Under the pieces are notes generated by a model that was not told where the DNA came from, did no database searches, and saw only the letters and a program-made list of their open reading frames with translations. From the NCBI GenBank assembly GCA_020697715.1, contig JAEHCO010000007.1, forward strand, positions 1 through 64,000: a stretch of DNA of 64,000 nucleotides. The letters run 5' to 3'. The DNA is from Methanobacteriota archaeon. Lineage in GTDB: Archaea; Thermoplasmatota; Thermoplasmata; SG8-5; JAGLSY01. The position numbers and the translations under genes are program-made. Positions 153-63,646 of the stretch are shown piece by piece (the first letter of the stretch is position 1; each line of letters starts with the position of its first letter).

Positions 153-556
153 CAGACTATCGGCTTGACACACGTCCAGGTTGTATATGGCGTATGAATG
201 GTATCATCGATCAAAGAAGGCGTACCTTCCAAGGTTATACAATATTCCTCTCCGATCTCGTCCCTTCCCCGATAATACAGCTTGTATCGCCGGGTGCACG
301 GTTGCCCAGGCCAGTATATATATAGTATGTATATTGGTCTGAGTAGAAGCCCATGAAAGTACGTCGGGTATAAAAAGGTAACCCATGACAGCCACCTTTA
401 TTGAGACTGCTTGGCACATTCCGTATGGCAAAAAGATATCATTCCGGCTAACATATTATGATAGTAACGATCTATATGTAATATATAATGTCTTATTATT
501 TTCCATCATTATATTATAGTTATATTCTATTTCTAACTTAATATAAGGTGAGGGAA

Positions 557-9500: not shown

Positions 9501-10090
9501 TTAGCCTGGTGCTGGACAATACTCCACCAATCGCAGATGCTGGTGAGGATCAGACCATCCTTGTCAATAATACCGTGACATTTAATGGCACTGGCTCATC
9601 AGATGTGATCGGGATTACCAATTATACCTGGACCTTTGATCATGGCGGTGTACAGCAAACTCTGTACGGATCCGAGTCAAGCTTCAACTTCTCGATATCG
9701 GGGAATTATACGATAACACTCAGTGTCATGGATAACACTGGCAACTCAAATACCAGCACCATGATGGTCAATGTTGAAACCTTACCAGTTGAGACTGATG
9801 ATGAGGATGATGGAATTCCGGATGATGATGATGATCTGCCATTGGACACATCAGATACAGACGATCCAGGTATCGATCTCATGTGGATCATCATAATCCT
9901 CATAATCGCCCTGGTAGTAGGAGCCCAACTATTCCTCATGAAGGGAAAGAAGCAAAAGGATGAGGATGAAGAGCCGGATGACGAAGAGGAAGACCCAGAA
10001 GAGGAAGAACCGGAAGTAGAAGATGATGATGATGAAGGGGCTGATGAGGAAGAAGATGTGGACGAGGGTGAGGAGATACCTGAAAGCTGA
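557..10090 (+). CDS. Giant (~3180 aa) cell-surface glycoprotein: signal peptide, GLUG repeats, three NosD/CASH beta-helix blocks, Ig/PKD-like repeats, C-terminal TM and acidic tail
   Basis: Hydrophobic N-terminus; GGLIG/GGFVG GLUG repeats; N(N)xIxxN beta-helix repeats ending in GGNYW; WDTTAP repeats; PPIADAGEDQ PKD; TM LMWIIIILIIALVVG then D/E-rich tail. SD AAGGTGAG favours ATG 557 over GTG 548. Confidence 0.88.
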   Translation: MRKFSATLLVLVMIMSSLVPMASVLGDEVNDPPSLFAGGTGAPNDPYIIETVFELQNMQASLFSFYELGNDIDASATAGWNFGDGFDPIGSSASKFIGGLNGQNYTISNLFIDRGTEDYVGLFGYANADIGFVNLDYVDITGDTYVGGLTGANDGSIHDCTSSGNVVSTSHTAGGLIGYMPLGTCADSSTSGTVSSAMNTAGGFVGFNGADIDRCFSTASANTQALSGGFVGENFNFIDDSFARGAVSGTDLIGGFAGRNSAVFNGVITNCYSSGPVSGTSNVGGFCGQNWDIITSCFWDTTTSTRGTSSGGVGHITANMQAEATFTGAGWDFTSIWDINEGNSYPFLRSAPGSVFNSNTGMSFIKIQNAIDDPLTLDGHTILVDDGTYFENVDVTKRLNLVGNGSGVTTIDAQLSGIPLSITSDWVNVSGFNISNMEDLAFRGSVDMLNVDYCNISDCTIYNSQYYGIRLNQANNNSVYNNQIIENRMHGISMDSSSYNHFNMNNISGNSIGVGVTWYSDHNSFFLNDLSDQLFGFDISVAYDNNISFNTFTDHIWDCIRVNTGSDYEMFNNQFIGNSDRAFNLNNVDDSIIGQNFITGIMNSDAIYGIISDNISILNNNISDNSMTAIVLDNTHNSKISSNVMDRNGVTFSMDAMMLRSGSSNIEVRDNEIDGNGQHGIHIIDSSDNDIIDNDITNNTESGIHGESNSDYNLIQGNTISNNTLRGVHMVSLSNYNRIIDNDISFSGNFAIYLESSAGGNNQVSDNRVWNDATTGSGIAVYNQDNLICNNTCWNSPNGYGISLVNGPNTVYNNTAWGNYHGIYGSAMRDSQIYDNNMSGNLFYGIYAAGNADDNEIYNNTLSNNTEYGVVIQSAEGNNVHDNDMYDNGVGGVYLRWGDNNTVKDNLIANGGTRGIFLEETSYQTIEGNTVIGCQRGIYIDDSSWNNITNNNVSSNTLQGIFLMTGSVSNEVTYNFCGWNGDAGISASDADGNFILFNNCSYNRDGISIGSYADGNYIILNTVYANSNGGGGFGLRVPAGPQPGRSNGFYWNNIIANDNHAEDNDGTNSNYWNIPVNFGGGNYWSSYGGVDNFNGPAQDVAGADGFGDTPYAIPWFGAQDNYPIMKKMTGPIPVRNMDTNEVFFDIQSAIDDAETLNGHTIQCDAGTYNENIIVNKQLSIIGNGSTSTTIDGSASGDVVTVNSDWVNITGFYITGSGAVSTDAGVKLQNSDHCRVENCNISNNGRNGIRVDNVDDCVFTDNQYHSQVVGVYLENAQRNLILNSTFTGCTGDAIHTWNGNYWNEIINNDIINNNEGIEWSGWEADYNIIRSNNISSNFNSGIWFDGSSDGNNEVEDNILGWNGYAGIRIADGASSTKVWDNEIIGNDDYGIRITSTGNNNQIWSNNISHNKNGGTGTGISVTNGVNQIYNNNFIDNDVHAADWTATTVWDIGMPFGGNYWDTWLGPDANADGYVDDPYVIDGDSQDNWPIAKESGWQFLGPVTNTNTGENFTTIQEAIDDADTLNGHTITVDAGTYNENVVVDKQLTIIGNGSANTIIDGNALGTVIQIDSDWVNISDFNITNAGIGGAAIAMNGTDNCNIYDNNLIQSTYGVYLISSQNNTIDNNTMMDNEISVSLWTSSNNNDVTSNNITNSLHGMRVHSAVSNTIADNTINSNTFIGILLETNASYNSVSNNNVSGNGEYGIAAYYDSDHIDIIGNEVWDNDNYGIYLIGPSNCTISNNNAISNSLGIVISSNMGYSSQFNNVTNNNASSNNFNGILVTQSVNNTVHMNEVWDNIEHGISIVDSSENDFIANNIVSSNMHGFYLTRSTHNTIAGNTISLGSNMGMLIDDSDGNSISWNSISTTTSQDFGIKLLDSSNCSIHNNTIDTTSTVSSGIFLEGACLSNDIDDNDISTAGQWSYGIYLYSGPMNNRVENNTVYVEGQDNHGIALITNSESNMVANNDVNVTGTNNNGIYVQGSDNNNIICNYMNWTNESGAGIQIEDSQYVTVSNNTVSNGSAGNSIGIALDSASRCTVSYNNLFHNYHGIALFGNSFENTLQSNHVMWSEWRGISCLDSLGSKASNVFIDNNLSYNADYGLVLLGGSDDNLISGNEFFYNWQGMHVQYCIGISITDNEIAENINGIYMAFVSYANITSNSIYQNINGIQVSNINHTLIQNNHFYANGNGVYFLSSNDIEVSRNNISGNGRGIDITLQTNNCTIFDNTISFNTKAGLDFRHWCNSTQVYDNNISDNQVGVRLDRSYYNRIYLNMIMNNTIQAVDNETNSWDNSYPSGGNYWSDYAGSDLYMGPSQNVLGSDALGDTPYTSILGGMGNQDNYPLMHPTDYIDAVDPVSQIDTISPYWWNDMPFIITANVSDPGSGIDHIELWYNFTDNANGWVFFGNTTSFPWTWDFTWPDGEGDYNFYSIAVDNSGNVEGTPGVADAGAYYDITAPIINAGLDATSNSNYQQDSFYIETGSGIGNNSWSAVSGPGNITFTSQWSEDPWISADMDGLYVLQLNATDNAGNWATSSFTLLWDTVAPVATVGIDIDTRVQIFKDAFASDMLSGLGNYTWSASGPGNVNFSDQWSQDTWISADMDGMYTIQLTVTDIAGNWYVDEFILTWDTTAPIVDVGADIQTNAQFFKNILASDAGSGIDNFTWSVESGPGNISFGTQWAEDTDISADTDGVYVIRLSVKDNAGNWAWSEFTLTWDETAPIVNAGSNITTNIQVLQNATSFDNTSGIASYAWTQISGLGALTFGTPSAEDTTIQASSDGVYVARLTVTDNVGNVNWSEFTFTWDTTAPDINISINGTSFRSVEYYLASSSEVCLEGIDDGTGIDSIWYRVFDDEGTWTNWLQFTSNFTLGQYVVNGICYLEYNVTDMVGNQRSWNTTFFIDDIAPITTIDYGDSIYVDSLQNITLTALDDGAGVDTTWYRIWDWTISYTPWIQYTGDITISGDDRELFIDLYSVDYLGNIEGMQNFSLVLDNTPPIADAGEDQTILVNNTVTFNGTGSSDVIGITNYTWTFDHGGVQQTLYGSESSFNFSISGNYTITLSVMDNTGNSNTSTMMVNVETLPVETDDEDDGIPDDDDDLPLDTSDTDDPGIDLMWIIIILIIALVVGAQLFLMKGKKQKDEDEEPDDEEEDPEEEEPEVEDDDDEGADEEEDVDEGEEIPES

Positions 10091-10580: not shown

Positions 10581-10765
10581 GCAGGATAATAGGCATTAAC
10601 ATTTATTAAATTAACTGTATATTTCACAAAATAAACATTCATTTGACCAATATTATCAGAATATATTAGTCAAACAGATGAATTGTTATCAATATATTAT
10701 AAGTATCATTATTTCATGTTAGGGCAATCGACCCCGTGTATCTCAGGGTCAATAGAGGTATGACA

Positions 10766-12091
10766 ATGCACAAGAACATTTCAGAGATATTGGAAGAAGC
10801 TAAAAAAGTAAAATTAGAGAATGTCCGGGTCCAGTTCACGGACATACTGGGCAATCCAAAGAATATCGTGATACCCGAATGGAGACTGGAGGAAGCATTG
10901 GATGAAGGAATTGCCTTCGACGCATCTTCCATTGAAGGGTATGCGACGATTGAAGAATCCGACTTGATAGCGAAGCCGGATCTTGGCTCATGGCAGATAC
11001 TACCAGAATCATTGGAGAAGCGAGTGACAGCCAGACTCAACTGCGACATCTACCGCACGAATGGGGATAGATACGCTGGAGATCCAAAATACGTGCTCGA
11101 AAAAGCGATGAAAAAAGCGAGTGACATGGGCTATTCTGCGAATTTCGGGCCAGAATGTGAATTTTTCCTCCTGAAGATGGTGGATGGAAAGCCAACTACC
11201 ATTCCAAATGACACAGGGGGTTACTTCGATCTGTCACCCCGTGATCTAGCCGAGAATGTCAGAGGCGATATTTCGGCTCTGCTACAGGAAATGGGATTTC
11301 AAGTTTACACCACGCACCACGAGGTGGCGGCTGGCCAGCATGAGATCAACTTCCAATATTCCGACCCGCTGACGACAGCAGACAGAGTGGTCACACTGAA
11401 ATATGTATCAAAGATTATCTCACTTCGAAATGATCTTCACGCAACCTTCATGCCAAAGCCGATACATGGCGAGAATGGAACTGGCATGCACACCCACATG
11501 TCCTTGGTCGGCAAGGATGGAAATGCCTTCAATGATCCAGATGATGAAAATGGACTGAGCGAGCTGGCCTATAATTATATCGCCGGCCTTCTTCAATACT
11601 CCAAGGAGATGAATCCCATCCTCAATTCCTGGGTCAATTCCTTCAAAAGACTGGTGCCGGGTTATGAAGCTCCTTGTTACATCGCCTGGGCGACACAGAA
11701 CCGTTCCGCTCTTATTCGAATTCCTGCCAAGCGTGGCGGAGGAACCAGGATCGAGCTGAGAAATCCAGATCCTGCTGGAAGTCCGTATCTGCAATTCGCG
11801 GTCATGCTGGCTGCGGGTCTCAAAGGAATTGAGAACAATATGCAGCCACCAGAGAGGGTGGAGAAAGACATCTACAAGCTGTCACAGACCGAGAGGGCGA
11901 AATACAATATCGAATCACTGCCAGATAACCTTGGGCATTCGCTCACATTCATGGAAAAGAGCGAGCTGATGCTGGAGACACTGGGGCCGCATATCTTCAA
12001 TAATTTCCTGTATCTGAAGAGGAAGGAATGGGACGAATACCGAACACAGGTTACGGACTGGGAGATCGACCAGTATCTCAGTATATTGTAA
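10766..12091 (+). CDS. glnA: Glutamine synthetase type I
   Basis: FDASSIEG, HHEVAAGQHEI, FMPKP..GENGTGMHTH, KRLVPGYEAP, NRSALIRIP, RIELRNPD motifs; SD GAGGT before ATG 10766 (10760 also possible). Confidence 0.96.
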   Translation: MHKNISEILEEAKKVKLENVRVQFTDILGNPKNIVIPEWRLEEALDEGIAFDASSIEGYATIEESDLIAKPDLGSWQILPESLEKRVTARLNCDIYRTNGDRYAGDPKYVLEKAMKKASDMGYSANFGPECEFFLLKMVDGKPTTIPNDTGGYFDLSPRDLAENVRGDISALLQEMGFQVYTTHHEVAAGQHEINFQYSDPLTTADRVVTLKYVSKIISLRNDLHATFMPKPIHGENGTGMHTHMSLVGKDGNAFNDPDDENGLSELAYNYIAGLLQYSKEMNPILNSWVNSFKRLVPGYEAPCYIAWATQNRSALIRIPAKRGGGTRIELRNPDPAGSPYLQFAVMLAAGLKGIENNMQPPERVEKDIYKLSQTERAKYNIESLPDNLGHSLTFMEKSELMLETLGPHIFNNFLYLKRKEWDEYRTQVTDWEIDQYLSIL

Positions 12092-22282: not shown

Positions 22283-23956
22283 TCATTTACCCTTTTGCAT
22301 CCTGGCCCAAGAATCCCTGAGGCCAACAGTTCTGTTGAATATGATATTTCCATCGGTCGAATCTGGATCCACGCAGAAGTATCCAGTTCTTTCGAATTGC
22401 ACAGTATCCCCATGCTCGAGGTCCTTAACGGCAGGCTCTACCTTACAGCCTGCCAGTGTCTTGAATGAATCGGGATTTATGAACTCCTTGTAATCATGAT
22501 CCTTTTCTCCCATGGGATTCTCGACAGTGAATAGCCTGTCATAAAGGCGTATCTCCGTGTCAATGGACTCGGTCGCTGATACCCAATGAATGGTGGCCTT
22601 CACCTTGCGGCCATCAGGAGCATTACCACCACGGCTATCCAGATCAACAGAGCAGTGCAGTTCGACCACATCGCCAGCATCATTTTTGATGATATCATTG
22701 CATGTCAGCAAGTACGCGTACCTTAGGCGTACTTCCCGGCCAGGTGCTAATCTGAAGAATTTCTTGACTGGCTCCTCCATGAAATCCGCGCGCTCGATGA
22801 ATATTTCGCGCGTGAAAGGAACCTGGCGGCTTCCCGCATCCGGGTCCTCAGGGTTGTTTATGGCATCCAGCATGTCGATCTCGCCCTCTGGGAAATTGTC
22901 GATAACTATCTTCAGTGGGTCAAGAACTCCCATGACTCGCGATGCTTTTTTATTCAGATCATCGCGAACACAAGCCTCCAGAAGCTCGAAGGCGATGATA
23001 TTGGCCTTCTTCGCAATACCTGCCCGATAGCAGAATTCTTTGACGGCCTCGGGGGTGTAGCCACGCCTCCGCATACCGCAAATAGTTGGCATTCGAGGAT
23101 CATCCCAGCCATTGACAAGCTCCTTGGTCACAAGCTCCTTGAGGAAACGCTTGCTCATTATCGTGTAAGAGACATTCATCCGGGCGAACTCGATCTGCTG
23201 AGGATGATAGATATCCAGCTCATCCAGGAACCAGTCGTAAAGCGGACGGTGATTCTCGAACTCAATGGAGCAAAGCGAGTGAGTTATTCCCTCGATAGAA
23301 TCCTCCAGGCCATGCGCCCAGTCATAAATCGGATAGATGCACCATTCGTCACCCGAATGCGGATGGGTCGCATGCAGTATCCTGTACATTGGCGGGTCGC
23401 GCATGTTCATGTTCGGATGCGTCATATCGATCTTCGCCCTCAGTGTCTTGGAGCCATCCGGAAACTCGCCTTTTTTCATCCTCTCGAAGAGATCCAGATT
23501 TTCCTCCACCGATCTTTCACGGTTCGGGCTGTTCTTTCCAGGAGTGTTATAATCACCCCTGTATTCCTTCATATCCTCCGCATTGAGGTCGCAAACATAT
23601 GCCTTGCCTTTCTTGATAAGATCAATGGCATAGTCATACATTTGCTGGAAATAATCCGATGAAAATAATAGGCGGTCCTCGAAATCCGCGCCCAGCCACT
23701 TCACATCCTCCACGATGGAATCAATGAATTCCTTTTCTTCCGCAATGGGATTAGTGTCATCGAATCTCAGATTGAATTTACCACCGTATTCATCCGCGAT
23801 ACCATAATTGACCCAGATGGCCTTCGCACTGCCTAAGTGCAGGTATCCATTTGGCTCTGGTGGAAATCGAGTATGCACTCGTCCATCGTATTTTCCGGTC
23901 TTGAGGTCCTCGTCTATGACCTGGCGTATGAAATCGCGTGATTGGCTTTCGTCCAT
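22283..23956 (-). CDS. glnS: Bacterial-type glutaminyl-tRNA synthetase
   Basis: TRFPPEPNGYLHLG, LRFDDTNP, WCIYPIYDWAH..EDSIEGITHSLC, QIEFAR, MSKR, GWDDPRMPT, and the GlnRS beta-barrel anticodon domain (FFRLAPGREVRLRYAY, KATIHWVS, QFERTGYF, FNRTVGLRD); SD AGGAG before ATG 23956. Confidence 0.93.
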   Translation of the reverse strand: MDESQSRDFIRQVIDEDLKTGKYDGRVHTRFPPEPNGYLHLGSAKAIWVNYGIADEYGGKFNLRFDDTNPIAEEKEFIDSIVEDVKWLGADFEDRLLFSSDYFQQMYDYAIDLIKKGKAYVCDLNAEDMKEYRGDYNTPGKNSPNRERSVEENLDLFERMKKGEFPDGSKTLRAKIDMTHPNMNMRDPPMYRILHATHPHSGDEWCIYPIYDWAHGLEDSIEGITHSLCSIEFENHRPLYDWFLDELDIYHPQQIEFARMNVSYTIMSKRFLKELVTKELVNGWDDPRMPTICGMRRRGYTPEAVKEFCYRAGIAKKANIIAFELLEACVRDDLNKKASRVMGVLDPLKIVIDNFPEGEIDMLDAINNPEDPDAGSRQVPFTREIFIERADFMEEPVKKFFRLAPGREVRLRYAYLLTCNDIIKNDAGDVVELHCSVDLDSRGGNAPDGRKVKATIHWVSATESIDTEIRLYDRLFTVENPMGEKDHDYKEFINPDSFKTLAGCKVEPAVKDLEHGDTVQFERTGYFCVDPDSTDGNIIFNRTVGLRDSWARMQKGK

Positions 23957-24070
23957 GTTCAATCTCCTTGTCATTGGCTATTTGGGATATGGTAAATAAT
24001 GTTTTGGAATGAGAGTGTTAATATCTGATCTTCTATCTAGAATCCCACATAATAACGTTTAAAAAGAAAG

Positions 24071-24144
24071 AGCCATTGGAGAGATTTGAACTCCCGACCT
24101 GCTGATTACAAATCAGCCGCTCAACCGGGCTAAGCTACAATGGC
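24071..24144 (-). tRNA. tRNA-Thr(UGU)
   Basis: GCCATTG acceptor, GCTGA-TTTGTAA-TCAGC anticodon arm, GTTCAAATC T-loop; TTTATATA box ~30 nt upstream. Confidence 0.96.
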
Positions 24145-24210
24145 GTATGATATACCCCTGGAAGTTAAAATTATATAAATATCTATTGAATGATTACTTT
24201 AGCAAATATG

Positions 24211-24218
24211 TTATATAT
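24211..24218 (+). promoter_or_regulatory. TATA box of the leader-tRNA-Gln transcript
   Basis: TTATATAT preceded by a purine-rich BRE-like stretch; predicts a start near 24234-24241. Confidence 0.6.
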
Positions 24219-24233
24219 CAATTGATATTTCCA

Positions 24234-24330
24234 GTGCTGTTAAGACATGCTTAACGCCTCGAGGTGTGAACACGGAACTAAAGTTCCTTAGATGGCACCA
24301 CGAGGCTGTTGGGCATAGAAAAAGCCCAAC
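24234..24330 (+). ncRNA. Structured ~95-nt 5' leader of pre-tRNA-Gln with an anti-tRNA hairpin
   Basis: Perfect 19-bp inverted repeat 24296-24314 / 24324-24342; further stems GTGCTGT/ATGGCAC, ACGCC/GGTGT, GGAAC/GTTCC. Confidence 0.6.
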
Positions 24331-24402
24331 AGCCTCGTGGTGTAGCGGTTATCATGGGAGACTCTGGATCTCTCGACTCCAGTTCAAATCTGGACGAGGC
24401 TA
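24331..24402 (+). tRNA. tRNA-Gln(CUG), archaeal type (A1-U72, A73)
   Basis: AGCCTCG/CGAGGCT acceptor, GGAGA-CTCTGGA-TCTCT anticodon arm, GTTCAAATC T-loop, followed by a T-run. Confidence 0.96.
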
Positions 24403-25065: not shown

Positions 25066-28000
25066 TCATTCTTCATCGTCGCTGATTTTCAATTCCTCCG
25101 CACAATCATTGCAGACGAAATCACCTTCTTCATCAGTTGATCCGGCCTTTCCAGACACTCCACAGTACGTACACTCGTTCTCTTTAGCAGGCTCAGACTT
25201 GTCCTTATCTTTGCCTCCCTTCCTCATGCTGATGACCGTGTTGATGATGAGCAGGATTATGACGATTATCAAGAGGAGCATTATGGTGTTCTGATTTCCC
25301 TGCTGCTCGCTTGATTCCGCGCCCACTTTGTCGATCACACTGGCTTCTGCAGCTTCCAAATTCTCTGCGAGTGTGAAGAGATCAGCACGGATCTCATCCA
25401 GCTTGGCAAGGTCTGCGAGAGTGTCATCGATATCTGCCAGGGTTCCATTGATATTATCCTGGAAGTCCATGATATCCTGGTTCAGGGCCTGGAGATAAAG
25501 AAGAGTTCCAATGTCATGCGATGACAGATTAGTGGATATCCAATTCAATCTCTGTGTCAGCTCGGCCAGTGTCAATGAATTAAGATCACGGATGGTGTCA
25601 TCGAGTAGCGCCAGTTCATCGGTCATGTTCTCATCGTGTGACATGAGCATGCCTTTCAGATCGGCCAATGAATTGTTCAGGTCATTGTAGAAGCCATCCA
25701 TCGCATTCTCAAGTTCCGCTATCCTGCTGTCCAGATATGCTGTGTCCGCATTAATGGCCGCTAGTATGTCACTCAATGCGGATGCAAGACCATCCTGCAT
25801 CGTGATGTTCAGGCCATCTATTTTCATATCGAGGCCATCCAATAGAATGGTAAGGTCAGCTGTCTGATTCATTATCTGACTGTACAAAGCGAAGTCCACC
25901 CTGGCCAGTTCGTCCATGAAGGTCATGGTCAGGTCATCAATGAGCATGGTCAGGTTTCCCTCGACCTGCCACAGGTCCGAATATAGATTGGCAAGTGTCA
26001 TGTTCAGATAGTCTATATCTGCCTGAATATCTGCCGCACTCATATTCAGCCAGGCAAGATCGATCTGTACCTGAAGTAGAGTGGCATTGACAAAGTCCAC
26101 ATCAGACTGCATAAGGTCCAAAGTGGTATTGAAGTCGGTCCAATATGAGGAGATCTGGCTGTATGTCATCATGTTCTCCATCGATAGATTGGTCATGCCC
26201 GAATCCATCGCGAATCTTAGACTGGCTATGTTCGCATCCATTGCTGATATATTGAGATCCTGGCTTGACAGCATTCCACTTATGTATGTTTCTGTGGCCG
26301 CCATGTCAGTCCAGGTCGTATTGAACCAGGCATTGATGCTCGCATAGTTGCTGGCTGTTGTCATATTGTACTGTGCCCAGAACACTGTGAATTCCGTTCT
26401 TAGATCATTCAGAGATGACTGGAACGCCAGCTGTGTCATATTGGCGAAGTTCAGATCGTTCTGGATCTGTGCCATAGTAGAGTTCCAGGATGTCCAGTAT
26501 AGGCTCTGCAATGTGTGCGTGTCATTATGCTCGTTCCACATTGCCATGAAGTAAGCCTGCATCGCGGCATCCATGCTGGTCAGATTGGCATCCAACTGTC
26601 CGAGATTTCCGGAAAGATCGCTCAGAAGCAGGGTGATATTCGCCTCGAAGCCACTCATCTGGCTCCTGATGCTGGCAGCCTCGGTCTGAATGGTCAAGTT
26701 CAGACCGTCCATCGTGGTGTTCAGATAGTTTTGATATGCCTGGAAATACAGATGCCAGTTATCCCATGTTGTATTGAGATCATCCCTGTGAGCTAACAGT
26801 TGTGCTAGAATGATATTGGCCGTCGCGTCCAGAGATGCAAGGTCGGTCTGTACCTGAAGCAATGTGGCATTCAGGAAGTTTACATCTGCCTGTAACGCGG
26901 CAGATGTCACATTCCAATCTGCCCAGTACAGACCGTGTAGTGTTTGTGTATCATTGTGCTCATCCCACATTGCCTGGAAATAGGCCTGCATGATGGCATC
27001 CATATTGGTCACATTCACATCCAACTGCCCAAGGTCTGCATCCAGATCATTCAGGAGAGCGGTCATATTGCCCTCGAAATCATTCATCTGGGTGTATACC
27101 ATCTCGATCTGGTCCTGAAGTGTTATGTTCAATCCATCCGTAGTTGTATTGAAGTACGACCAGTATGAATCGAACTGCGCATCCCATATTGTCCATGTTG
27201 CATTGAAATCAGCCCAGTATGCCAGAATAAGCGCATTGTTCGCTGTCACCGTGGCATTGATGTCATCGATCACCTGTATCCAGCCAACGACCTCGAAGCT
27301 GGTTATTCCAATATAATTGAAGCCAGCTATTTGAGCATTCACTGCAACGAAGTACGTGCCTTCTGCGGGTATGCTGTCGCTGTAAGTATAGAGACCGAAT
27401 GTCGCATCCAGTATGTTCATGGATGCATTGTCCACGATCTTCATCATGCTGTCGTCGAAGATGGTCACGGTAACATTGGTGAAAGCGTCTGGCACCAATG
27501 CCTGGCCGTTCTGAGTCACTGAGGCCATGATATCATATTCAACACCATTCGCATCGTACTGAAGACCGGTCGTGACATCCACATTCGTTGGTGGGGTTGT
27601 GGATGATAATGTCACAGTCACTTCCTTGGACATATCGATCGTTGCTACGAGAGAGCCCATCATGATACCATTGTTGGCAATAGCCAAGTGAGGTGTGTGA
27701 TCTGTCTGGCCTGCTTGATCCTCTACATATTCCGTCACGACATTCCATCTGGCATATCCATTTGCATCAGCGTTCACATTGTAAAGTGGTGTGCCGAACA
27801 TATCAACTATCTCAACCTGAGCTCCAGCAACTGGCTGCATCATCTCATCACGCACGTACACGTTCATGAACCACTGTATCTCAAGTGTGGAGAGTGCATC
27901 CATATAGTTGATGGATGCCTTGTTGAAGGTCGAGTTCAGTGATGTGATATGGCTGTCCTGATCCAATGCGATCTCAAAGCCATTGCCAGAGAACGTGAAG

Positions 28001-31000
28001 TTCTCAATGGTGAAGGTACTGTCAACACCAAAAACACCGGTCGGAGAGTTGGTGATGGTATTCAGAGACATTGGAGTGGTGTAATCAGAACCCCTTGCAC
28101 CCAATCCAAAAGCCGTAAGTGCATTCATTGTGTTGCCAGTTATGAGATTGTCACCAGAGTCCCAAGAATAGATACCTATGGGGCTGTTGGTTAAAATGTT
28201 CGATATTACAGTGTTGCCGAATGTTCCATCAGCCAATCTTATACCTTCGGAGGTGGCGCCGGTAACTGTATTGCCAGATACGATATTTCCAGTGGATGTA
28301 TCAGTGACTATGATCCCTATCATTGAAGAGCTCATCAAATTGTTTGTCACATAGTTCGAATCAGAATCCCTTAGATTGACATCATTCTGGGCATTGCTAT
28401 TGAATGTTGAACCATTGATCACATTGTAATTTGACGATTGGAACCTTATGCCTTGCCAAAGGTTCGAGGAGATCGTGGAGCCCTCGATGGTGTTGGAATC
28501 TGAGTTAAAGCCAAACACTCCTCCATTGGCACTGTTCGTGATCAAAGTATTGACAATGGTATTGGAATCCGCATCACGCAGATACAATCCATATCCCTCA
28601 TCACTGTTGGATATTGTCGAGTCGATTATGAAGTTGTTATCAGACCTGATGTACAATCCATGAGCATTGCCAGTGAATGTCGCATTATAGATGAACACGC
28701 CGTTTGCGTATACTTCCACACCTTCATTCGACCAATCCCAGCCAGCACCCGTGATGGTACTGTTCTCCACTCTGAAGTTCGCACCACTCATGATATTCAT
28801 CAGGTAGCCGAAGGTCGTGTTAGACATCACAGTGCTTCCTTCGATGATATGGAATGTACCGCTTGAGTTGACCTGGATAAGATACTGGCCATTTGCAGCA
28901 TTGTTCATCCTTAGCTGAGTCTCATCGAGTATCAATGAACCACCGCTCTCGACCCAAACATCACCTGTCTGATTCCAGAAGGATGGATCCACTGTGAGTG
29001 TTCCACCATTCCTTATGACCAGCTGGCCAGTAAGGTTGAAGGACGAGTCTCTTATGAGAATGTCAACACCATCGATCACCACGTCCTCGAGGTACGTCGT
29101 GTCGTCAAGTTGTAATTCATCGCCATCTGTAGCATTCGCAATAGCACTCGTTATTGTCGGATACCAAAGTCCCTGGTTCCAGTTCAATACATTTTGGTCA
29201 GGGTGCCAGTTGGTCCATCCAAATGGAACTGTATGAGGCCATAAGTCCTGAGAATCTCCATCGATCACATATGGGTCATCGACGAAGCCATCCCAGTTGT
29301 CATCCGGGGTTTCCCAGTTATCCCAATAGTTACCGCCCAGGTCATATCCGAGGTTCCAGGTCTGGGTATATGCATCGAGAGCCTGAACTCCATTGTTTAT
29401 GAAATTATTGTGATAAATGAAGTTGTTATATCCATTTTCAATATTCAGACCAATACCAGAATTTGAATCGATCGTGTTGTTGGTAATCATGTTATTTTCA
29501 TATGGAGGAGGAGGAATTGCCCAGATAAGATCAGGGTATGATAGATCCTCATATATTGCCCAAACCGTTGCAAAGTCCCAGCCAGTGAATGTAGCTTCTT
29601 GTTTCATTTCAGCTGTTGTTTTACCAATTCCACCATAGCTGGTCAACAAACCAGATGAGTCCATGTCCCAGAAACAGTTGAGCGTTGTCAAACCCGCTTT
29701 TCCTGAGAAACCTCCAACATTGATAGTGCCAGAAACTGTGCCAGTACTGTAACTATTTGTTACAGTAGCTGCACTATTTCCACCGATGAATCCTCCTGAA
29801 TTAGCTCCACCAGAAATGACATCTACGTTTGAGTAACAATCAATTATTATATCATTCCAGGCCCATCCAACTAATCCTCCAGCATCAGCCCCAGTACTAG
29901 TTACCGTTCCTTTGCTATAAGAATTACTTATTGATTGGATCGAGGTGTAAGTCTGTCCAACAAGCCCTCCAATATTGCCATCACCACTAACAATAGAATC
30001 AGAGTAACAGCCAGTTATAGTTCCTGTACCATCATTTGAGCCAACTATTCCTCCAACTGTGCCGCTTACAGCATCAATTGTTACTAAAGCATGGCAATCT
30101 GTAATAGTGCCTATGTTGTATGCAGTTATGCCTCCAGCTGTTCCCTGTGTGCCAGAAATTGTCCCGGTAACATAAGAGTTGTCTATTGCCCCCTCATTGT
30201 GTCCGCTTATTCCTCCTGCATAATTTGTACCAGAGACCAATATATTTTCCAGTCCAATATTGCTTACTACACCAGATGGTCCAATGAATCCCATGAAACT
30301 CCTATCCCATTGATTCTTGTAACCCACATATAGGTCTGAAATAACAAGTCCCTGACCATCTAATGTTCCAGTGAATGGTGAAGCACTATTTCCAATCGGC
30401 TCAAATCCTTCTCCACCATTCCATCCCGTTGTTGCACTTGCATCAAAACTATTCATCACGATATAATTGGCTCCAAGATCAAGAGCTATATCCTGCAATT
30501 CATTTACATTTGTTATCTGGTATGGATCACCTGGAGAACCATCTCCAAGGCCTGAAAAGGCAGGTATTGGTGCGTCCCATTGTGGATAAGGATATGATGT
30601 TCCTTCATCAATTGCCCATGTGTTCACGAAATCCCAGCCGACGTATGTGGCCTGAGACATCATCTCTGCTGTTGTCTTTCCGTTTATATCTGTTCCAGAG
30701 CCGCCAGCAGATCCTATGCCAGTTGCCTGGCCAGAAGCATCGACATCCCAGAAGCATGGATCAATAATTCCACTGTCAGAGCCTGCAAAACCACCGACAT
30801 TTGTAACACCAGTTACAATGCCAGTTGAGAAGCTGTCAACTATCAATCCAAATATGGAGCCAACATCATTAATTCCAACAAAGCCTCCGACATTGTTATT
30901 ACCAATAACATCACCCTTTGCATAGGAATTGTGGATCTCACCTCGATTGTCTCCAACGAATCCGCCATAGTTGCTATTATCACCATTTTTAGTTACTGAA

Positions 31001-34000
31001 CCTGTGGCGTAACATTCGAAGATCTCTCCTCTGCTATGACCGATGAAGCCACCGATTGTGGCAAAACCGACCACAGAACCTGTAGCATAACAATTATCAA
31101 TAATAGGTCCAGCTGCCCCGATAGTACCGATGAAGCCACCCACATTTGATGAATCTACTCCACCTGTTACATCACAGGTGCTTGAGCTATTGGCAATGTT
31201 GTTGTTATTGTAATTATCACCGATGAAGCCACCAATATAAGAACCATAATCAACACCATTCACAGATCCAGTTGTGTGTGAGTCTTCGACATCACCAGAG
31301 TTTTCTCCGATAAGACCACCAGTTTGTGATTGGCCAGTAACAATACCATCAAAATCACAAGATGTGACGGTTCCAGAGTTCGAGCCCATTAAACCGCCTA
31401 CCTTATCATCACCAGTAATTACTGAGCTAGCGATACTGACATTGGATATTTTCGAATTAAAGGCCCACCCAAACAATCCTATATAATCTTCAGTTGGTCT
31501 ATTAACAACCAGATTGCTTATTGTGAATCCCTTTCCGTCCAATGTCCCCTGGAATGGTGAGGCACTTGCGCCGATCGGAACAAAGCCGCCTCCAAGATTC
31601 CATCCTGAAGTAGCTGTGGCATCGATATCGTTCATCAGAATATAGTGCATGGACTTTTCAATGTTCATCTCCTGAAGTAGGTCTACTGTTGATACCTGGT
31701 ATGGGTCGGCTGGAGTTCCTGAACCAGGCCCACTAAACAGAGCCTTTGGCTCATTTACTGGCAGAGCTAAGAATATGCTCTCATCATTGTCAACTGATAA
31801 ACCGGCTGGTAGATCATTAGTAATGATAATTCCATCACCACCATTTCCATAGATCACATTATTGGAAATAGAATTGTTATTTGAACTCAGATAAATTCCT
31901 TCAGCTGCATTTCCATTGATATTGTTACCAGAGATCGTGTTATTATTAGATCCAATATATATTCCCATATTACCATTATCTACAATGTCATTTCCGATTA
32001 CCTGGGTAAACATACCCGCTCCGGATTCCAGGGATATTCCTGCATTGACATTATCAGATATATCACTATCAAGTATCATGGTATTTGAGCTGCCATCCAA
32101 TGTTAATCCATTATAATTGTCAATAAGCTCTGCTTGATTGAAATAAGTATCATCTGCATAGACCACAAGACCAGGGTTGGCTGCATCCCATCCAGCATCC
32201 TGGATGGTTGAGTTCTCAACGTTGAAGGTTGCGCCATCATTGACGATGAAGTTATAGCCAAAGTTCGGGTCCACTGCCTTGATGGTCGAGCCATTTGGAT
32301 TTACATCATTATACAGGTTCATGACCTCGTAGTCTGTGAGTGGTCTGGAATATATCCTGGCATCATCCATTCTTCCATCGAAGTAATCATTGGCCCAGTT
32401 GGACTTGCCTATGAAGGATGATGTCCTGGCAACATTCGCAGGTACTGAAATGGTCCCTGTCTTTATTGGGTTGCCATTCACATATATGGTCACATCACCA
32501 GTAGCACTCATAGTAGCAGCAAAATGGTTCCAGCCAGATATTCCATTCAAAGGATCGGTATCTGTTACCACCGCGCCTCCAAACGCACCGCCAATATAGA
32601 CCTGGAAGGCAAGTTCATCATTCACGCCCCACCTGGCAAAGACGATGTTGTCATCATTCTGTCCCTGGCCAAGATCAAAGAACCTTGCCCAATCCTTCAC
32701 ACTGTCTATCTCTGCCCATATGGACATGGTCAATCCATTGGATACATCATAGTCGACAGTGCCAAGGTCAACATAATCATCGATGCCATCGAAGTCAAGT
32801 GCTCCATCCATTGTCCATGTTGGATCATTAGCATCTGCCCCAACGGCCGAGCCAAGTGTACCGTCATTGTCAAAGATCTTAGATGAATCATATGCGGTAT
32901 CTCCAGTGCCTTCATCGAAGGTCCACTGGCCGATCAGGTCTGGTGATTCCTGTATGTATATCTCACCAGTGGCATTCACTGTGATGCCGAACTCACCATC
33001 AAAGGTATTGTCGATCTCCCATGTGGAGGAGTTCAGCCATACACGACCATCTATCCAGACATTCTCCGATATGAGGGTGTTCGGGCTGTTCTTGATGATC
33101 AGATCACCATTCACGATGACTGTTCCCACTTCAAGTGAGATGTCATCAAGCGTTAGCAAGCTACCAGCATTTATTGTCAGGCTGCCATCTATTTCAAAGT
33201 TTGAACCGACGAACTCAATGTTCTTATCCACAACGATATTCTCGCCGTATATCCTGTCTTCTATGAGCAATCTGTCACCTGGACTGGCCGCGGCGATGGC
33301 ATCGGTTATGATGACATGGTCGGTCATTGCATCCAGATTATGAACTGGAGTTGGGTTCAGCCAGCCATTTTCAACACCATATGGCCAGGTATCCTCTGAT
33401 ACTCCGCCAGTTATTGGGTAATTGACATCTATGAACCAGTCTGGAAGGCCTGTTGTCTGGGGCCTTATTATATCATTGTAGTGATCTGGAACCACTAGGT
33501 CGCTCCAGTAGTTCCCTCCTACTGGATATGGTGCGTTCCATGTATTTGCGTCCAGCTCCCATGCCTGGTTGACATTGTCGATGAAATTGTTATGATAGAT
33601 GAGATTGTCATTTCCTTCCTCGATGTACATTCCATAGCCAGTGTTATCCATGATCACATTGTCTGTGAACATGTTATTGGTGTGAGGAACAAGATCGATA
33701 TTGTCTTGGATCTCTTCTATGGATATTGCTCTGTCCCATATCTTGACCTCATCGATGGAGCCCACGAAGCCCCAAGCGTTAAGGTAGGATAGTCCAATCC
33801 TGGATACACCTGGCTGTATATTAGGTAACATTGCAACAGATGGACTAGCGGATACACCGTCAACGTATATCTCGGCTGTAGCTCCATTGAACACGACGCC
33901 AACATAATGCCATACACCATCATTCACCGAGATCGTGGATACAGGTCCGACCTGGTTCGTCACATCGAAGTGTAGCAGACCAGTTGTATCATGGTAGAAG

Positions 34001-37000
34001 TGCAGACCCTCAAAGAATCCTGGGTCTGAACCATAAGCGATGATGGTTGGCCTCGCTCCTACGCTTGTGGTGTTTATCCAGGCAAATATCGAGAATGGAC
34101 CGGTTCCTGTGTGAGGTGTCTGGCTCAGTGTTACGTAATCGCCTATGAAGTCCAGGCCACTGTTCACTGCTCCGGTTCCCCAGGTCGGGTCTATGCCGAC
34201 CTCGACAGTACCGTCCAGGCCAAGGAAGCCATTATTTCCGGTCGCGCTTGAATCCGCGACAGTCTGCCCAGTATTCTCATCAAAGTTCCAGTAGCCAACA
34301 GGGTCATCGGATGGTGTGACATAATTGAGATCAAGATCCCCATTGACGAATATTCCATTATCATTGCCAATTATCTGATTATCGCTGATGTCATTGACAT
34401 TGCCGCTGTGGGTTACGAGATCGTAAAGGTACAGACCATCACCGTTGTTATTTAGTATCATGTTATTTGTAATATCTATATTTACAGAATAGTTCACTGC
34501 TATACCATCATATAGACTGTTACCGACAGTGTTGTTCCTAATTGGTGTGTCCTTTGACTTGACCAGCCATATTCCGAAGCCACCACTGTTCCATACCTCA
34601 TTGTCCTCAACTGTGTTATTGTTGTGTATGAGCCATTCCGCATCCCCAAGGTTATTGAGTATCGAGATACCGCTCCAGCTGCTCCCAGTCACATTGTTGC
34701 CGATAATCGCGGCGTCCTCAACATTGGACACTCCGGGCAGGAAACAGATACCATACTGGCGGCTGTCTGTCACTGTATTGTAAAGGACCTGATGGTCATC
34801 TCCCTGGGCGAAATAGATACCGTAAGTATTGTTGGTGATCGTATTGTATTGAACTACGTGACCATTTGTATTGCCACCGCCAATTCCGATACCGCCATTA
34901 TCATAGACATCATTGTACTGGTAAGTGCCATAGCTGGCATAGCTGATGTAGGCACCATAGATATCATTAGTATGAATGCTGTTATTCTCTATTGTATTGT
35001 AGCTACAGCCATAGTCATTACCAATACCGAAATAATAGTTATCATAGACCGTATTATTGGCTATTGTATTGTAATCTGAATATCTTTCGATATGGATACC
35101 ACCATCGAAGCTTCCCATGCCCACACCATTGTTATAGACGGTGTTTCTCATTACAGTATTGTAATCTGTTATTCCAGTGAAAGAATACAGATTTATACCA
35201 TCCTCATCATTGTTGAAGACCGTATTGTCTGAAACTGTATTATATCCTGCCTGGTAGAGTAAAATTCCGTTCTCCAATTGTGAGTCCGAGACAGTGTTAT
35301 TATCAATGGTGTTCCATGATCCAATAGATACCTGAATTCCATTATATTCACAGAAAGATATCGTATTGTTCAATATCATATTGGAGCTTGACTGAATCCT
35401 TATTCCATCATAATCGCAGGCTGTTATTACATTGCCCTCGATGGTGTTTGAGCTACCGCCAGATATTCTGATACCATGCTGTGAACCATACATGATATTA
35501 TCATAAACATGAACATTTGTCACGGTGTCCAGATTGAGACCAGCATCTGCATTTAGGTTGGTTCCACCATTGGTGACATTGAAGCCAGTTATATTAACCC
35601 AGTTAGACTGAATATCGACAGCTTTGCCAGTTCCACTGCCATCAATTATCGTATTGTCCCTGCTAGCTCCCTGGATTGTCAGTATTTTATTGACAATGAT
35701 ATTCTCCGTATATGTACCAGGATCCACCATTATGGTATGGCCGTCCAGTGTGTCTGCATCATCTATTGCTGCCTGAATGGTCATGAATGTCTCGGTCGTA
35801 TCGATATTCTCTACAGGGTCTGGGATATATGGCCAGCTGCTTGGGGTCATCCATGGGAAATCATCCTGCCCAGTTGTCATCAATATCACAGGAGGAGCGA
35901 TGATCGTCTGGATACCCGTATATGGTGTGTCGCCGATACCATTCACATCTCCATCTGAACCTGCATAATCATCCCAGAAGTTTCCACCATAAGGCAGGCC
36001 ATTGTCCCATAAAGGACTGCCCTGGTAGAAGGCATGGGTTCCGGCATTTAGAATGAAATTATTATTGTAAATAATGGCTCCATTGTTCGGGCCGTTCACG
36101 GTGACACCATTCCCCATATTGTTCGATATGGTATTGTTCACTATCTCGGCATTGTCCATACCAGAACCTATCTGGATGCCAGATACCAAGGTTCCAGTTA
36201 TCGTGAAGCCTGTTATCTCCACATTCAAAGCCGCAATATCAAATCCAATATTGTGAGTGAGGCCTCCATCCAGAGTGGTGGTGTCCTTGTCCTCACCGAT
36301 CAAGGTCAGCTCCTTGTTGATGTTGACAGATTCAACATATGTTCCTTCCTCGACAAAGATAGTATGGCCGTCCAGTGTTTCAGGAGCATCGATAGCCTCT
36401 TGAATGGACTTGTAAGCGAGGTCAGTGTTCAGATTGCTTACAGGTGTGACCCAGCCATTGGATTCCATCCAGGGATATGCATCCGCACCCCTGTCAACTA
36501 TAGCATATGCTGTGTCCCCAAAGCCATCTGAATCACCATCAACACCAACATAATCGTCCCAATAATTTCCTCCTACGGGGAGGGCTTGAGACCATATTTG
36601 GGTTCCCGAACCTTCGGTGTAAGCATTAACTGCATTGCCAATGAAATTATTATTGTATATTTGAGTCTGAGGTCCTTGTGAATTTGAAATATAGTATAAA
36701 TGGATACCATATTGGCTGGCACCAGATATCGTATTTCCGATTATCCGGTTGTCATGCGATGCAGATAGGTAAATACCCAGTGTACCACCAGTGATCGTAT
36801 TTGACTCGATAATATTTCCAATACTAGGATATCTCTGAATGTACATACCAAATGTATTGGATGTGAATGTATTGTCCTTTATTGAGGTGTAGGATGATTC
36901 CCAATCCCATATGCCTCTTGCATTGCCAGAGATTGTATTGTTATTGATGTCATTGTGATCGGCTCCCACGTATAAGGCGACAGCAGATGAATAACTAGAT

Positions 37001-37497: not shown

Positions 37498-37738
37498 ATT
37501 TGACCTCTCCAATGTGTGCACGCAAATTCATATATCGCGTACCTTAACCTTGTTACACCTCCCGAATAACATATTATTAATATAGTTATGCACTAATAAA
37601 AATAAATATGAAGACATCTATTTAAATGGACAGATAAATATTAACAATAATTAATGAATGCAGCATGATATGGAAAAGTTATAATGATTTCTTAATAACA
37701 TTACATAATATCACTCACTACTTAAAAAAATAGAAAAG

Positions 37739-45369: not shown

Positions 45370-45613
45370 GCGATAGCCTTACTGAATTTGTACCATACCA
45401 CTCTAGCATGGTGCGAATTATGTAAGGACTCAAATAAGGCCTTAGCCTTGTGGAGTCCTCGCATCCTTACGATTGTAGATAATGATTGAACATATAAATT
45501 TGTCCCTCGGTATTATTCAAACATAATTGTGCAAAAAAATGAACAGCCAGTATAGTATTTATAGCATGAATTATATCGACTTGCTTATACTACTTAGGAC
45601 GCAGGTGATTTAC

Positions 45614-62339: not shown

Positions 62340-62349
62340 TATTTGACTC

Positions 62350-62883: not shown

Positions 62884-63098
62884 TTCACCACTCCTCTCTT
62901 CACCCCCCAATCCCCTTCCCATCATTTAAGTTGTGTGGTGGTTTGCACTTTTTAGCATGCTGGAAATGAATATATCAAATCACAAAGTATTATTAGCCAA
63001 TAGCACGATTCTTGAGTGAGTATGAGGGAAGTGATTAAAGATGAAAGCAACTTATTGTCCATATTGCGGAAGTCCAAAAGTCAATGAGGGCCTAATAA

Positions 63099-63617: not shown

Positions 63618-63646
63618 GTAAATATTGAGAAGGAATTACAATAACC

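Follow-up and report, generated by a model that had tools for sequence, protein, structure and literature searches.

A bacterial-type glutaminyl-tRNA synthetase beside an archaeal-type tRNA-Gln in the Thermoplasmatota

In passages of reviews that date from no later than 2022, glutaminyl-tRNA synthetase (GlnRS) is said to be missing from every archaeon known, the reason given there being that archaeal tRNA-Gln, with A1-U72 and A73, is unusable by the bacterial and eukaryotic enzymes; a 2016 survey found no archaeal GlnRS. What, then, is to be made of a bacterial-type glnS in an archaeal genome, next to a tRNA-Gln with exactly these features? The locus belongs to a stretch of 64,000 nucleotides (the window) from contig JAEHCO010000007.1 of a Methanobacteriota archaeon (GTDB lineage Thermoplasmatota; SG8-5), for which a preliminary description had proposed an acquired synthetase, adapted to an archaeal tRNA and replacing transamidation or running alongside it. 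Its starting point, that archaea are generally described as lacking GlnRS, agrees with these passages of the reviews. Part of the literature cites Di Giulio 2020 (Biosystems 196:104174) for the absence of GlnRS from “most” archaeal genomes, and that article, to judge from the citing text, may already list archaeal GlnRS; an excerpt of a 2024 preprint places GlnRS beside cox genes in Heimdallarchaeia; archaeal glnS genes are already annotated in databases; and in the literature searched no paper describing GlnRS in Thermoplasmatota was found. A preprint on metagenomic orthogonal pairs concerns bacterial GlnRS, and was set aside as not relevant.

The gene (22283..23974, reverse strand) is an intact open reading frame of 563 aa, whose product scores 700.6 bits against the NCBIfam glnS model TIGR00440 (cut-off 425.8), while it remains under the cut-off of both the archaeal gltX model (382.6 against 401.75 bits) and gltX_bact (75.7 against 289.95 bits); a GluRS-like reading was rejected. 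The top NCBIfam score, 815 bits, is that of the GlnRS/YqeY fusion model NF011291, but it covers model positions 9-561 of 769 only; the protein stops at 563 aa and has no match to PF02637 or PF09424, and thus no YqeY tail, as had been described. The Pfam domains follow one another in the order PF00749 (345.4 bits), PF03950 (95.4) and PF20974 (88.8), that is, a class I E/Q catalytic domain and two anticodon-binding beta-barrel domains, the layout of GlnRS (class Ib). The HIGH signature reads HLGS (residues 46-49), in which H40 and G42 (E. coli numbering) are present and the fourth residue, position 43, is Ser and not the catalytic His, and the KMSKS-type loop reads IMSKR (residues 272-276; VMSKR in E. 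coli); both motifs had been read correctly at the outset. Among solved structures the best relatives are E. coli GlnRS chains (up to 674.7 bits), the closest proteins in the databases bear the names Thermoplasmata archaeon or Thermoplasmatota archaeon, and the nearest non-archaeal relatives are bacterial, with 56-66% identity. The gene is under purifying selection (dN/dS 0.052 against G003 and 0.081 against G001). The observation that the window encodes a predicted GlnRS of bacterial descent can thus be regarded as confirmed.

This gene is not peculiar to one genome: GlnRS was found above the cut-off in 14 of the 22 genomes of the window's order, and for the Thermoplasmatota as a whole in 76 of the 401 genomes sampled. 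All 48 archaeal GlnRS examined, with open frames of 551-618 aa in every copy, fall into one clade when compared with 79 bacterial sequences (tree support 99), and in a tree rooted on eukaryote-type GlnRS the archaeal copies, 28/28, again group together as a clade (SH-aLRT 100) within the bacterial GlnRS, a pattern that points to a single old transfer. The preliminary description had suggested a phylogeny against GlnRS and GluRS, and had named grouping with archaeal GluRS as what would speak against it; the window protein is placed among GlnRS, and the acquisition that it proposed agrees with the rooted tree. The linkage to tRNA-Gln recurs as well: of the 14 genomes of the order that have GlnRS, 10 carry tRNA-Gln(CUG) no more than about 4.1 kb from glnS on one contig, a tRNA-Gln lies within 1.5 kb of 34/48 archaeal glnS loci, and the arrangement is also found in the single-contig genomes G339 and G411. 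Together, these sequences indicate that the transfer was old and phylum-wide, and not special to the window's genome.

In the window, the start codon of glnS is 356 bp from tRNA-Gln(CUG) (24331..24402, with its end at 24402/3, forward strand), a gene on which ARAGORN and Rfam (57.2 bits) agree and which the preliminary description had placed at about 370 bp. A tRNA-Thr(UGU) that was absent from that description (24070..24144, reverse strand; ARAGORN; Rfam RF00005, 65.8 bits) lies between the two. When acceptor stems are parsed with anchoring on U8 and the T-loop, the tRNA-Gln reads A1-U72, G2-C71, C3-G70, G10 and A73, with the anticodon loop CUCUGGA, and it therefore keeps the archaeal features attributed to it. 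Its leader carries a perfect 19-nt inverted repeat with a 9-nt loop (24296..24342, forward strand; arms 24296-24314 and 24324-24342), by which the leader is complementary to its own last 7 bases and tRNA-Gln positions 1-12 (RNAfold, -48.7 kcal/mol for the leader and tRNA 5′ end); weaker versions of it are seen upstream of other tRNA-Gln genes. Also in the window is a glutamine synthetase gene, glnA (10736..12091, forward strand; TIGR00653, 477.6 bits, cut-off 429.15, C32:10784-12079), of which the genome has two copies, and which is relevant here because GlnRS needs free glutamine and glutamine synthetase is a source of it. In E. coli K-12 the tRNA-Gln genes read U1-A72, G2-C71, G3-C70 and G73, in accordance with the contrast drawn at the outset, and the window tRNA-Gln(CUG) differs from the E. 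coli identity set at A73, C3-G70, G37 and A38; changes of such positions, according to part of a review, cost much activity in E. coli.

On the side of the protein, S269, K270 and R271 are invariant in 48/48 archaeal GlnRS. The nine residues that we take to bind glutamine and ATP in the E. coli enzyme (R30, E34, D66, Y211, H215, S227, C229, Q255 and K270, of which R30, Y211, H215, S227, C229 and Q255 would presumably form the glutamine pocket) are identical in the window GlnRS and in all 48 archaeal sequences, as are those that we take to bind the anticodon (R341, R402, R410, Q517 and R520). Position 43 is more variable: the archaeal sequences divide into 41 with H, 4 with N and 3 with S, the bacterial ones into 77 with H and 2 with S. 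Given that two bacterial GlnRS share the HLGS motif, and that HIGN is present in G007, G010, G012 and G014, in which no route besides GlnRS was detected (none of the four yielded GatD or GatE, nor did the three searched yield GatB), an altered HIGH motif would seem to be tolerated. Residue 235 is Asn in 46/48 archaeal GlnRS, with C3-G70 or U3-A70 tRNAs, and in bacteria D235 accompanies G3-C70 in 4/4 cases (E. coli included) and V235 accompanies U3-A70 in 4/5, so that, to judge from these alignments, residue 235 tracks the 3-70 pair; Asn at this position is also found in 19/79 bacterial GlnRS. Across the GlnRS alignment only one column, E. coli position 510, separates the 48 archaeal from the 79 bacterial sequences, and the GlnRS of G73 and A73 lineages are separated by two, 356 and 445, both in the Pfam anticodon-binding part and none at the acceptor end; no protein change that accounts for the acceptance of A73 was found among the alignment columns. 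Little in the protein thus speaks for the adaptation to an archaeal tRNA that had been proposed.

If so little adaptation is apparent in the protein, does the enzyme use such tRNAs at all? Eight GlnRS-bearing genomes of the order (G007 and G010-G016) yielded neither GatD nor GatE, and GatB was not found in the four of them searched (G007, G010, G012 and G013); since these genomes are 77-93% complete, each single absence of GatDE is uncertain, and in G015 glnS is incomplete and lies at the end of its contig. Their tRNA-Gln carry A1-U72, G2-C71, C3-G70 or U3-A70, and A73, and all standard tRNA-Gln of the order have A73, with or without GatDE. As the identity of tRNA-Gln is unchanged where GatDE is not found, it is very probable that the enzymes of this clade charge tRNA-Gln of the archaeal type, and the replacement of transamidation, one of the two outcomes envisaged at first, is consistent with these eight genomes. 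A search for a signature of discriminating or non-discriminating GluRS, comparing 8 genomes without GatDE with 9 that have it (G021 and G005 were left out, the motif filter having recovered no ORF), gave one differing column, G000 GluRS position 162, which is uninformative.

The genome of the window corresponds to the other outcome, as it encodes, in addition to GlnRS, an archaeal GluRS (594.8 bits), GatD and a GatE, all of which the preliminary description had proposed to look for. GatD, on contig C28, scores about 504 bits against TIGR02153 (cut-off 324), with matches to PF00710, PF17763 and PF18195. GatE, on the same contig, is divergent: it is above the cut-off of TIGR00134 (about 355 against 319.55 bits) and below that of NF003107 (422.6 against 456), it shows GatB_N only (141.5 bits), with GAD and the GatB_Yqey tail domain undetected, while all three domains are seen in the canonical GatE of G006, and it is about 30% identical to the canonical GatE of related genomes; in the alignment its catalytic motifs are preserved. 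Both gatE (dN/dS 0.07-0.10) and gatD are under purifying selection, as is glnS, in agreement with a GlnRS working alongside transamidation; and because a second route is present in the genus, activity of the window GlnRS cannot be argued from necessity. In 5/5 genomes (G000, G001, G002, G003 and G018), the divergent gatE is immediately preceded by a tRNA-Gln-like gene with A1·A72, which scores 43.7-58 bits (Rfam, five genomes), whose other acceptor-stem changes are compensatory, and whose anticodon loop in G000, G001 and G003 is UCUUGCA (C33, C37); in the window's genome this gene occupies C28:172877-172950. In another family, f36, both tRNA-Gln isoacceptors flank glnS and carry G73 (36/37 of the flanking tRNA-Gln); the GlnRS-free genomes of the family have A73 in 16/16, and its GlnRS-bearing genomes have an A73 tRNA-Gln in 6/13 with GatD and in 0/14 without GatD.

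In our view these data are best explained by an active GlnRS that stems from an ancient bacterial transfer and charges ordinary archaeal tRNA-Gln beside GatDE, an explanation that we consider probable as a whole. Family membership, phylogeny, distribution, synteny, residue conservation and purifying selection are its observed basis, and from these we infer glutaminylation activity, the tRNAs charged, and the sharing of the work with GluRS/GatDE. A bacterial glnS would have entered the Thermoplasmatota once, anciently, and would then have been passed on by descent in this phylum, apart from some transfers among its lineages. Glutamine synthetases would supply free glutamine, which GlnRS would attach directly to the adjacent tRNA-Gln(CUG) and to the tRNA-Gln(UUG) found elsewhere in the genome, at C11:290920-290991. 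Recognition would most likely have relied on features common to archaeal and bacterial tRNA-Gln: (i) the YUG anticodon, for which the binding residues are fully conserved; (ii) G2-C71 and G10; (iii) and a weak, openable A/U first pair; the Asn found at E. coli position 235 instead of Asp may, for its part, tolerate a 3-70 pair other than G-C. In the window's genus, the direct route would run parallel to a retained, divergent GatD/GatE with its own tRNA-Gln-like gene, and in the sister family the transamidation route would have been lost.

A further step would be to suppose that GlnRS and its tRNA-Gln form a self-contained module, and that the coexisting GluRS/GatDE uses separate, dedicated tRNA-Gln species, a reading that we put forward tentatively, as somewhat less than an even prospect; we hold with the same reserve that the split would run between G73 (GlnRS) and A73 (GatDE) in f36, and, in the window's genus, between standard tRNAs with A1-U72 (GlnRS) and the A1·A72 tRNA-like gene coupled to GatE. 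If this is true, evolution would have produced glutamine-charging systems that are insulated from each other within a single cell, the replacement of indirect by direct aminoacylation would have been caught in progress, and a ready source of orthogonal pairs would be at hand. Also less likely than not is a division of labour in which GlnRS serves only the linked tRNA-Gln(CUG), or only the two standard tRNA-Gln, and GluRS with GatD/GatE serves the A1·A72 gene, which would give two parallel, largely non-overlapping Gln-tRNA systems in the cell. The constant position of the tRNA-shaped gene before gatE, the catalytic motifs and low dN/dS kept by a GatE in which tail and GAD domains are undetected, and the parallel of f36, where G73 lies by glnS and A73 occurs only with GatD among GlnRS-bearing genomes, are in its favor; however, adjacency is all that links the odd tRNA to GatDE, in G000, G001 and G003 its anticodon loop, with C33 and C37, hardly looks suited to decoding, an avoidance of standard tRNA-Gln by GluRS would have to be assumed, and the window's order has A73 irrespective of GatDE.

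That the GlnRS is a relic or paralogue without aminoacylation, or has some other role, Gln-tRNA still being made by GluRS and GatDE, is very unlikely: HLGS in place of HIGH and the conserved presence of GluRS, GatD and a GatE would suit it, but the gene has a dN/dS of 0.05-0.08, the substrate- and anticodon-binding residues given above are all intact, H43N occurs in four genomes where no amidotransferase gene was found (GatB being searched in three), and the only GatE of the genome shows no detectable tail domain of the canonical form. Finally, an artefact of assembly or binning, in which a piece of bacterial sequence would have been joined to archaeal DNA or sorted into its bin, is scarcely credible and was rejected, in spite of the bacterial nearest non-archaeal relatives and of three proteins with bacterial MAG names inside the archaeal clade (P0015, P0025 and P0097), because glnS lies mid-contig, about 23 kb into 70.9 kb, among archaeal genes, between archaeal rRNA (Rfam, 5′ end of the 23S LSU rRNA at 1-157, reverse strand) and tRNAs, its GC and GC3 fit its neighbors (GC3 0.574, near four of the five compared genes, 0.538-0.557, with 0.467 for a 4151-aa ORF), genome contamination is 0.56%, the linkage recurs in independent genomes, and the archaeal copies are monophyletic.

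With an active GlnRS of ancient bacterial origin as the preferred reading, an archaeal clade of bacterial-type GlnRS coexists with exactly the tRNA identity that the review passages call unusable, and GlnRS appears to have displaced GatDE in several lineages, which bears directly on the old question of the persistence of the indirect pathway. Three states are represented among the genomes, namely both routes, an intermediate in which GatE is divergent, and GlnRS alone, and as position 73 (A/G), residue 235 (Asn) and the HIGH motif vary, these genomes offer natural test material for shifts of GlnRS identity; the GlnRS/tRNA-Gln pairs are, moreover, candidate orthogonal translation tools.

Compared with known systems, the window protein resembles bacterial GlnRS (E. 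coli; PDB 1gtr, 1qtq and 1qrs), with the same domain order, a similar size and no appended domain, matching the E. coli chains with about 672-675 bits over residues 9-559, and retaining MSKR and all the contacts to glutamine, ATP and anticodon that we have assumed. It differs in its archaeal host, in HLGS for HIGH, and in Y, N and A for E. coli L136, D235 and E323 (the chain of the top PDB match, 1qrs, has Asn at 235 and not the Asp of the K-12 gene), and its tRNA-Gln has A1-U72, C3-G70, A73, G37 and A38 where that of E. coli has U1-A72, G3-C70, G73, A37 and U38. With the GlnRS-YqeY fusion of the Deinococcus radiodurans type (NF011291, PDB 2hz7) it shares the GlnRS body, but not the C-terminal YqeY/GatB-like domain. 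The archaeal indirect pathway, non-discriminating GluRS with GatDE, has its components in the same genome, and the window tRNA-Gln shares A1-U72 and A73 with the archaeal tRNA-Gln of the review passage, but here the pathway is not the sole route, and its GatE is divergent. The eukaryote-type GlnRS, in turn, has a homologous catalytic and anticodon-binding core (human GlnRS chains, about 444 bits), whereas the window protein is without the N-terminal PF04558/PF04557, and the archaeal clade stands apart from the eukaryote group.

The glnS gene of the window (22283..23974, minus strand) is an intact open reading frame of 563 aa, in whose product domain searches find the class I Glu/Gln catalytic domain and both anticodon-binding barrels, and which passes the NCBI equivalog model for glutaminyl-tRNA synthetase (GlnRS) with 700.6 bits (cut-off, 425.8), its score with the archaeal GluRS model (382.6 bits) lying below the cut-off of 401.75. 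The top-scoring model is the GlnRS/YqeY fusion, and since the match stops at position 561 of 769, the YqeY tail is absent. The closest solved structures are E. coli GlnRS chains (~672-675 bits), followed by that of P. aeruginosa, with the D. radiodurans (498 bits) and human (444 bits) enzymes ranking lower. The window enzyme, like all 48 archaeal sequences compared, retains every residue that in E. coli GlnRS is taken to line the glutamine/ATP pocket or to contact the anticodon, and the dN/dS of glnS is low in value, 0.052 against the relative G003 and 0.081 against G001. The motifs are HLGS at the HIGH site and IMSKR at the KMSKS-type loop, in agreement with the preliminary description, which had read HLGS and MSKR in an intact, tail-less GlnRS. 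Among archaeal copies the His to Ser change is limited to the window's genus (HLGS in the window's own genome, G000, and in G003; HIGS in G001), although HLGS is also present in two Poribacteria GlnRS; four other relatives (G007, G010, G012, G014) have HIGN, and as these have no other detected route to Gln-tRNA, changes at that position are evidently tolerated. Judged from its sequence, the protein is a real GlnRS and almost certainly functional.

The possibility that glnS is an artefact of assembly is countered by its composition (GC 0.492, GC3 0.574), which is near that of its neighbours (GC3 0.538-0.557 in four of the five compared, 0.467 in an ORF of 4151 aa), and by the recurrence of the same tRNA neighbour in other genomes. 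Beyond tRNA-Thr(UGU) (24070-24144, minus strand), and 356 bp from the glnS start, lies tRNA-Gln(CUG) (24331-24402, plus strand), with the A1-U72, C3-G70 and A73 already noted for it, as well as G2-C71 and G10. Fourteen genomes in the order pass the GlnRS cut-off, and this tRNA is found on the glnS contig within ~4.1 kb in 10 of them (G000, G003, G005, G006, G007, G008, G010, G012, G014, G016), and at least one tRNA-Gln accompanies 34/48 archaeal glnS loci (1.5-kb flanks), against 9/79 bacterial loci (2.5-kb flanks). The archaeal setting is likewise sound: the contig opens on an archaeal 23S rRNA, of which it holds the 5′ end, the database proteins that come closest carry the names Thermoplasmata or Thermoplasmatota archaeon, and the genome (2.12 Mb, 34 contigs, the window being C32:1-64000) is 93.8% complete with 0.56% contamination. 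Public records already name the glnS genes glutamine--tRNA ligase. What the preliminary description had observed is thus borne out in all particulars.

Other features of the locus may be recorded here. A perfect 19-nt inverted repeat (24296-24342), whose leader arm is reverse-complementary to the last bases of the leader together with positions 1-12 of tRNA-Gln(CUG), would be predicted to compete with the acceptor stem; weaker leader repeats precede tRNA-Gln(CUG) in G003, tRNA-Gln(UUG) in both G000 and G003, and copies in G014 and G007. Next to the intact tRNA-Gln(CUG) gene, partial duplicates of its first 58-59 nt are seen in loci L103/L146 (G007:C8 ~71026-71323), G013:C159:560-855 and G001:C353:169-275, and may be sites where mobile elements have inserted; in G001 there is a split match, possibly due to an intron or to a rearrangement. 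In G009 (C99:5178-6835) the tRNA-Gln(CUG) is near the archaeal GluRS gene (~550 bp away) and not near glnS. The window also holds three giant ORFs, at 548-10090 (plus strand, 3180 aa), 25066-37521 (minus strand, 4151 aa, with a signal-like N-terminus, numerous short repeats of beta-helix appearance and a membrane anchor at its C-terminus) and 45527-52219 (plus strand, 2230 aa), and its GC falls to 0.32 at 62001-64000, against ~0.45 in the remainder.

With regard to origin, a FastTree of 127 rows (bacterial rows from named genomes; two window duplicates, one duplicate record and one partial gene excluded) separated the 48 archaeal sequences, without exception, from the 79 bacterial ones by a branch with support 99. 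With 119 more database matches the clade grew to 145 rows (support 100), comprising all 51 archaeal-labelled rows, 91 unnamed rows and three proteins named from bacterial MAGs (P0015, P0025 and P0097; Planctomycetota, TA06 DG_24 and Petrotogales), which may be mis-binned or represent back-transfers from archaea to bacteria. In a quick IQ-TREE (LG+G4, 92 rows) rooted on 12 eukaryote-type GlnRS recognised by the PF04558 N-terminal domain, the 28 archaeal rows used form one clade (SH-aLRT 100) several nodes deep inside bacterial GlnRS, which indicates a single transfer from bacteria; the transfer is old, because identity is only 63-71% even within the order. Members of the same family, and even of the same genus (g5), are split between subclades, a pattern that suggests later exchange of glnS inside the phylum.

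The window enzyme is therefore of bacterial ancestry, native to a Thermoplasmata genome, and one member of a large and old archaeal clade. GlnRS scores above the cut-off in 19/41 nearest relatives, in 14/22 genomes of the order (7/7 of those at least 90% complete) and in 76 of the 401 Thermoplasmatota genomes sampled at a completeness of 80% or better (48/271 among the high-quality ones), clustered in few families (f36, 39/59; f39, 12/15). The acquisition proposed in the preliminary description, whose interpretation is supported overall, must thus be corrected to an event that is ancient and widespread in the phylum, not peculiar to this genome.

Both arrangements that had been envisaged, GlnRS alongside transamidation or in its place, appear to occur. 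G000 itself also encodes the archaeal GluRS (594.8 bits), GatD (504.7 bits) and GatE (354.4 bits), gatE and gatD being neighbours on contig C28, together with two copies of glnA, one inside the window; a search for GatB found none there, nor in G007, G010, G012 and G013. Within the order, GlnRS, GatD and GatE occur together in 7/22 genomes (G000, G001, G003, G005, G006, G008, G009), while in eight GlnRS-bearing genomes (G007, G010-G016; 77-93% complete) neither GatD nor GatE was found, G015 having its glnS only in part, at the end of a contig, and G007 only a 39.8-bit asparaginase-like match. Five genomes with GatD gave no GlnRS (G002, G004, G017, G018, G019; 61-83% complete), and two (G020, G021) gave neither GlnRS nor GatD. 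A single genus can hold two states: in G016, where GatDE was not found, tRNA-Gln(CUG) is followed after 183 bp by glnS, and in G019 GatD is present and a different gene occupies that position. At the scale of the phylum, 46 of 75 GlnRS-bearing genomes (of 77 others with GlnRS matches, two below the cut-off being excluded) yielded GatD, and 29, including the single-contig G339 and G411, did not; GatD was found in 19/21 relatives without any GlnRS match.

Every standard tRNA-Gln recovered in the order has A1-U72, G2-C71 and A73, with C3-G70 (CUG) or U3-A70 (UUG), and this identity is the same in genomes without detected GatDE, which is the strongest indirect evidence that the GlnRS clade accepts archaeal-type tRNA-Gln. 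At three E. coli positions that we presume to be on the acceptor side, the window enzyme has L136 changed to Y, D235 to N and E323 to A. Asn235 occurs in 46/48 members of the archaeal clade, where it is near-fixed, but it is not unique to them: among the 79 bacterial sequences, 36 carry D, 19 N and 15 V. Leu136 of E. coli GlnRS is named in a review. At bacterial glnS loci bearing a tRNA-Gln, D235 goes with G3-C70 in 4/4 (E. coli included) and V235 with U3-A70 in 4/5, four of those tRNAs having A73, so that the archaeal tRNA-Gln, which has G2-C71, a weak first pair and the YUG anticodon in common with these partners, falls inside the natural range of GlnRS partners. Of the proposed adaptation to an archaeal tRNA, the co-occurrence with A1-U72/A73 holds, and adaptation at the level of the protein is not evident.

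The GatE of G000 is unusual in itself. It shares ~30% identity with the canonical GatE of G005, G006 and G009, as it does with a second paralogue group, and 59-93% with that of G001, G002, G003, G017 and G018; Pfam finds only the catalytic GatB_N, against GatB_N, GAD and GatB_Yqey in the canonical form, the catalytic motifs being kept in an alignment that stops short of the tail. The dN/dS values are 0.07-0.10 for gatE and 0.02-0.05 for gatD. Immediately upstream, 44 nt before the GatE match, is a third tRNA-Gln-like gene (C28:172877-172950), in which A1·A72 is a mismatch, the CCA is encoded and the anticodon loop reads UCUUGCA (C33, C37); it is followed by gatE and gatD (C28:172877-176259; locus L004 1384-4718). 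The same arrangement and mismatch, with compensatory changes at other pairs of the acceptor stem, recur in G001, G002, G003 and G018, the G002 copy having a normal loop (CUCUGAG). Transamidation is thus maintained in G000, in a remodelled form that looks as though it has its own tRNA; the genes around the locus, which encode sugar-nucleotide enzymes and complex I subunits, do not point to a special use. At least three GatE lineages exist in the class, also in genomes without GlnRS, and two GatE paralogues that differ in kind are present in several genomes among G005, G008, G022, G029, G031 and G036, some having two GatD.

In family f36, glnS lies between tRNA-Gln(CUG) and tRNA-Gln(UUG) on one strand (loci L105-L134, e.g., L110 1304-3410), and these flanking tRNAs have G73, the E. 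coli discriminator, in 36/37 (19 genomes), retaining A1-U72 or G1·U72 and C3-G70. Of 18 f36 genomes without detected GlnRS that were searched, 11 gave parsable tRNA-Gln genes; the 16 tRNAs obtained have A73 throughout, with a D-loop that is longer. Genus g129 holds both GlnRS states with the discriminators matching each. Among the best 30 loci, where kinship inflates the counts, A73-type tRNA-Gln occurs in 6/13 GlnRS-bearing genomes with GatD against 0/14 without it, 11 of these 14 giving parsable tRNA-Gln, all G73. Some f36 genomes with both GlnRS and GatD carry both kinds of tRNA-Gln. Across these genomes each route apparently has dedicated tRNAs.

A 2022 review describes all known archaeal lineages as lacking GlnRS, attributing this to incompatibility of tRNA-Gln, a 2021 review makes the same statement, a 2016 survey of >2500 genomes reports no archaeal GlnRS, and a 2024 preprint mentions GlnRS in Heimdallarchaeia; among the papers searched, none describing GlnRS in Thermoplasmatota was found. 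The genomes compared here display stages of pathway replacement, and the archaeal GlnRS clade contradicts both the generalisation that archaea lack the enzyme and the rationale offered for it.
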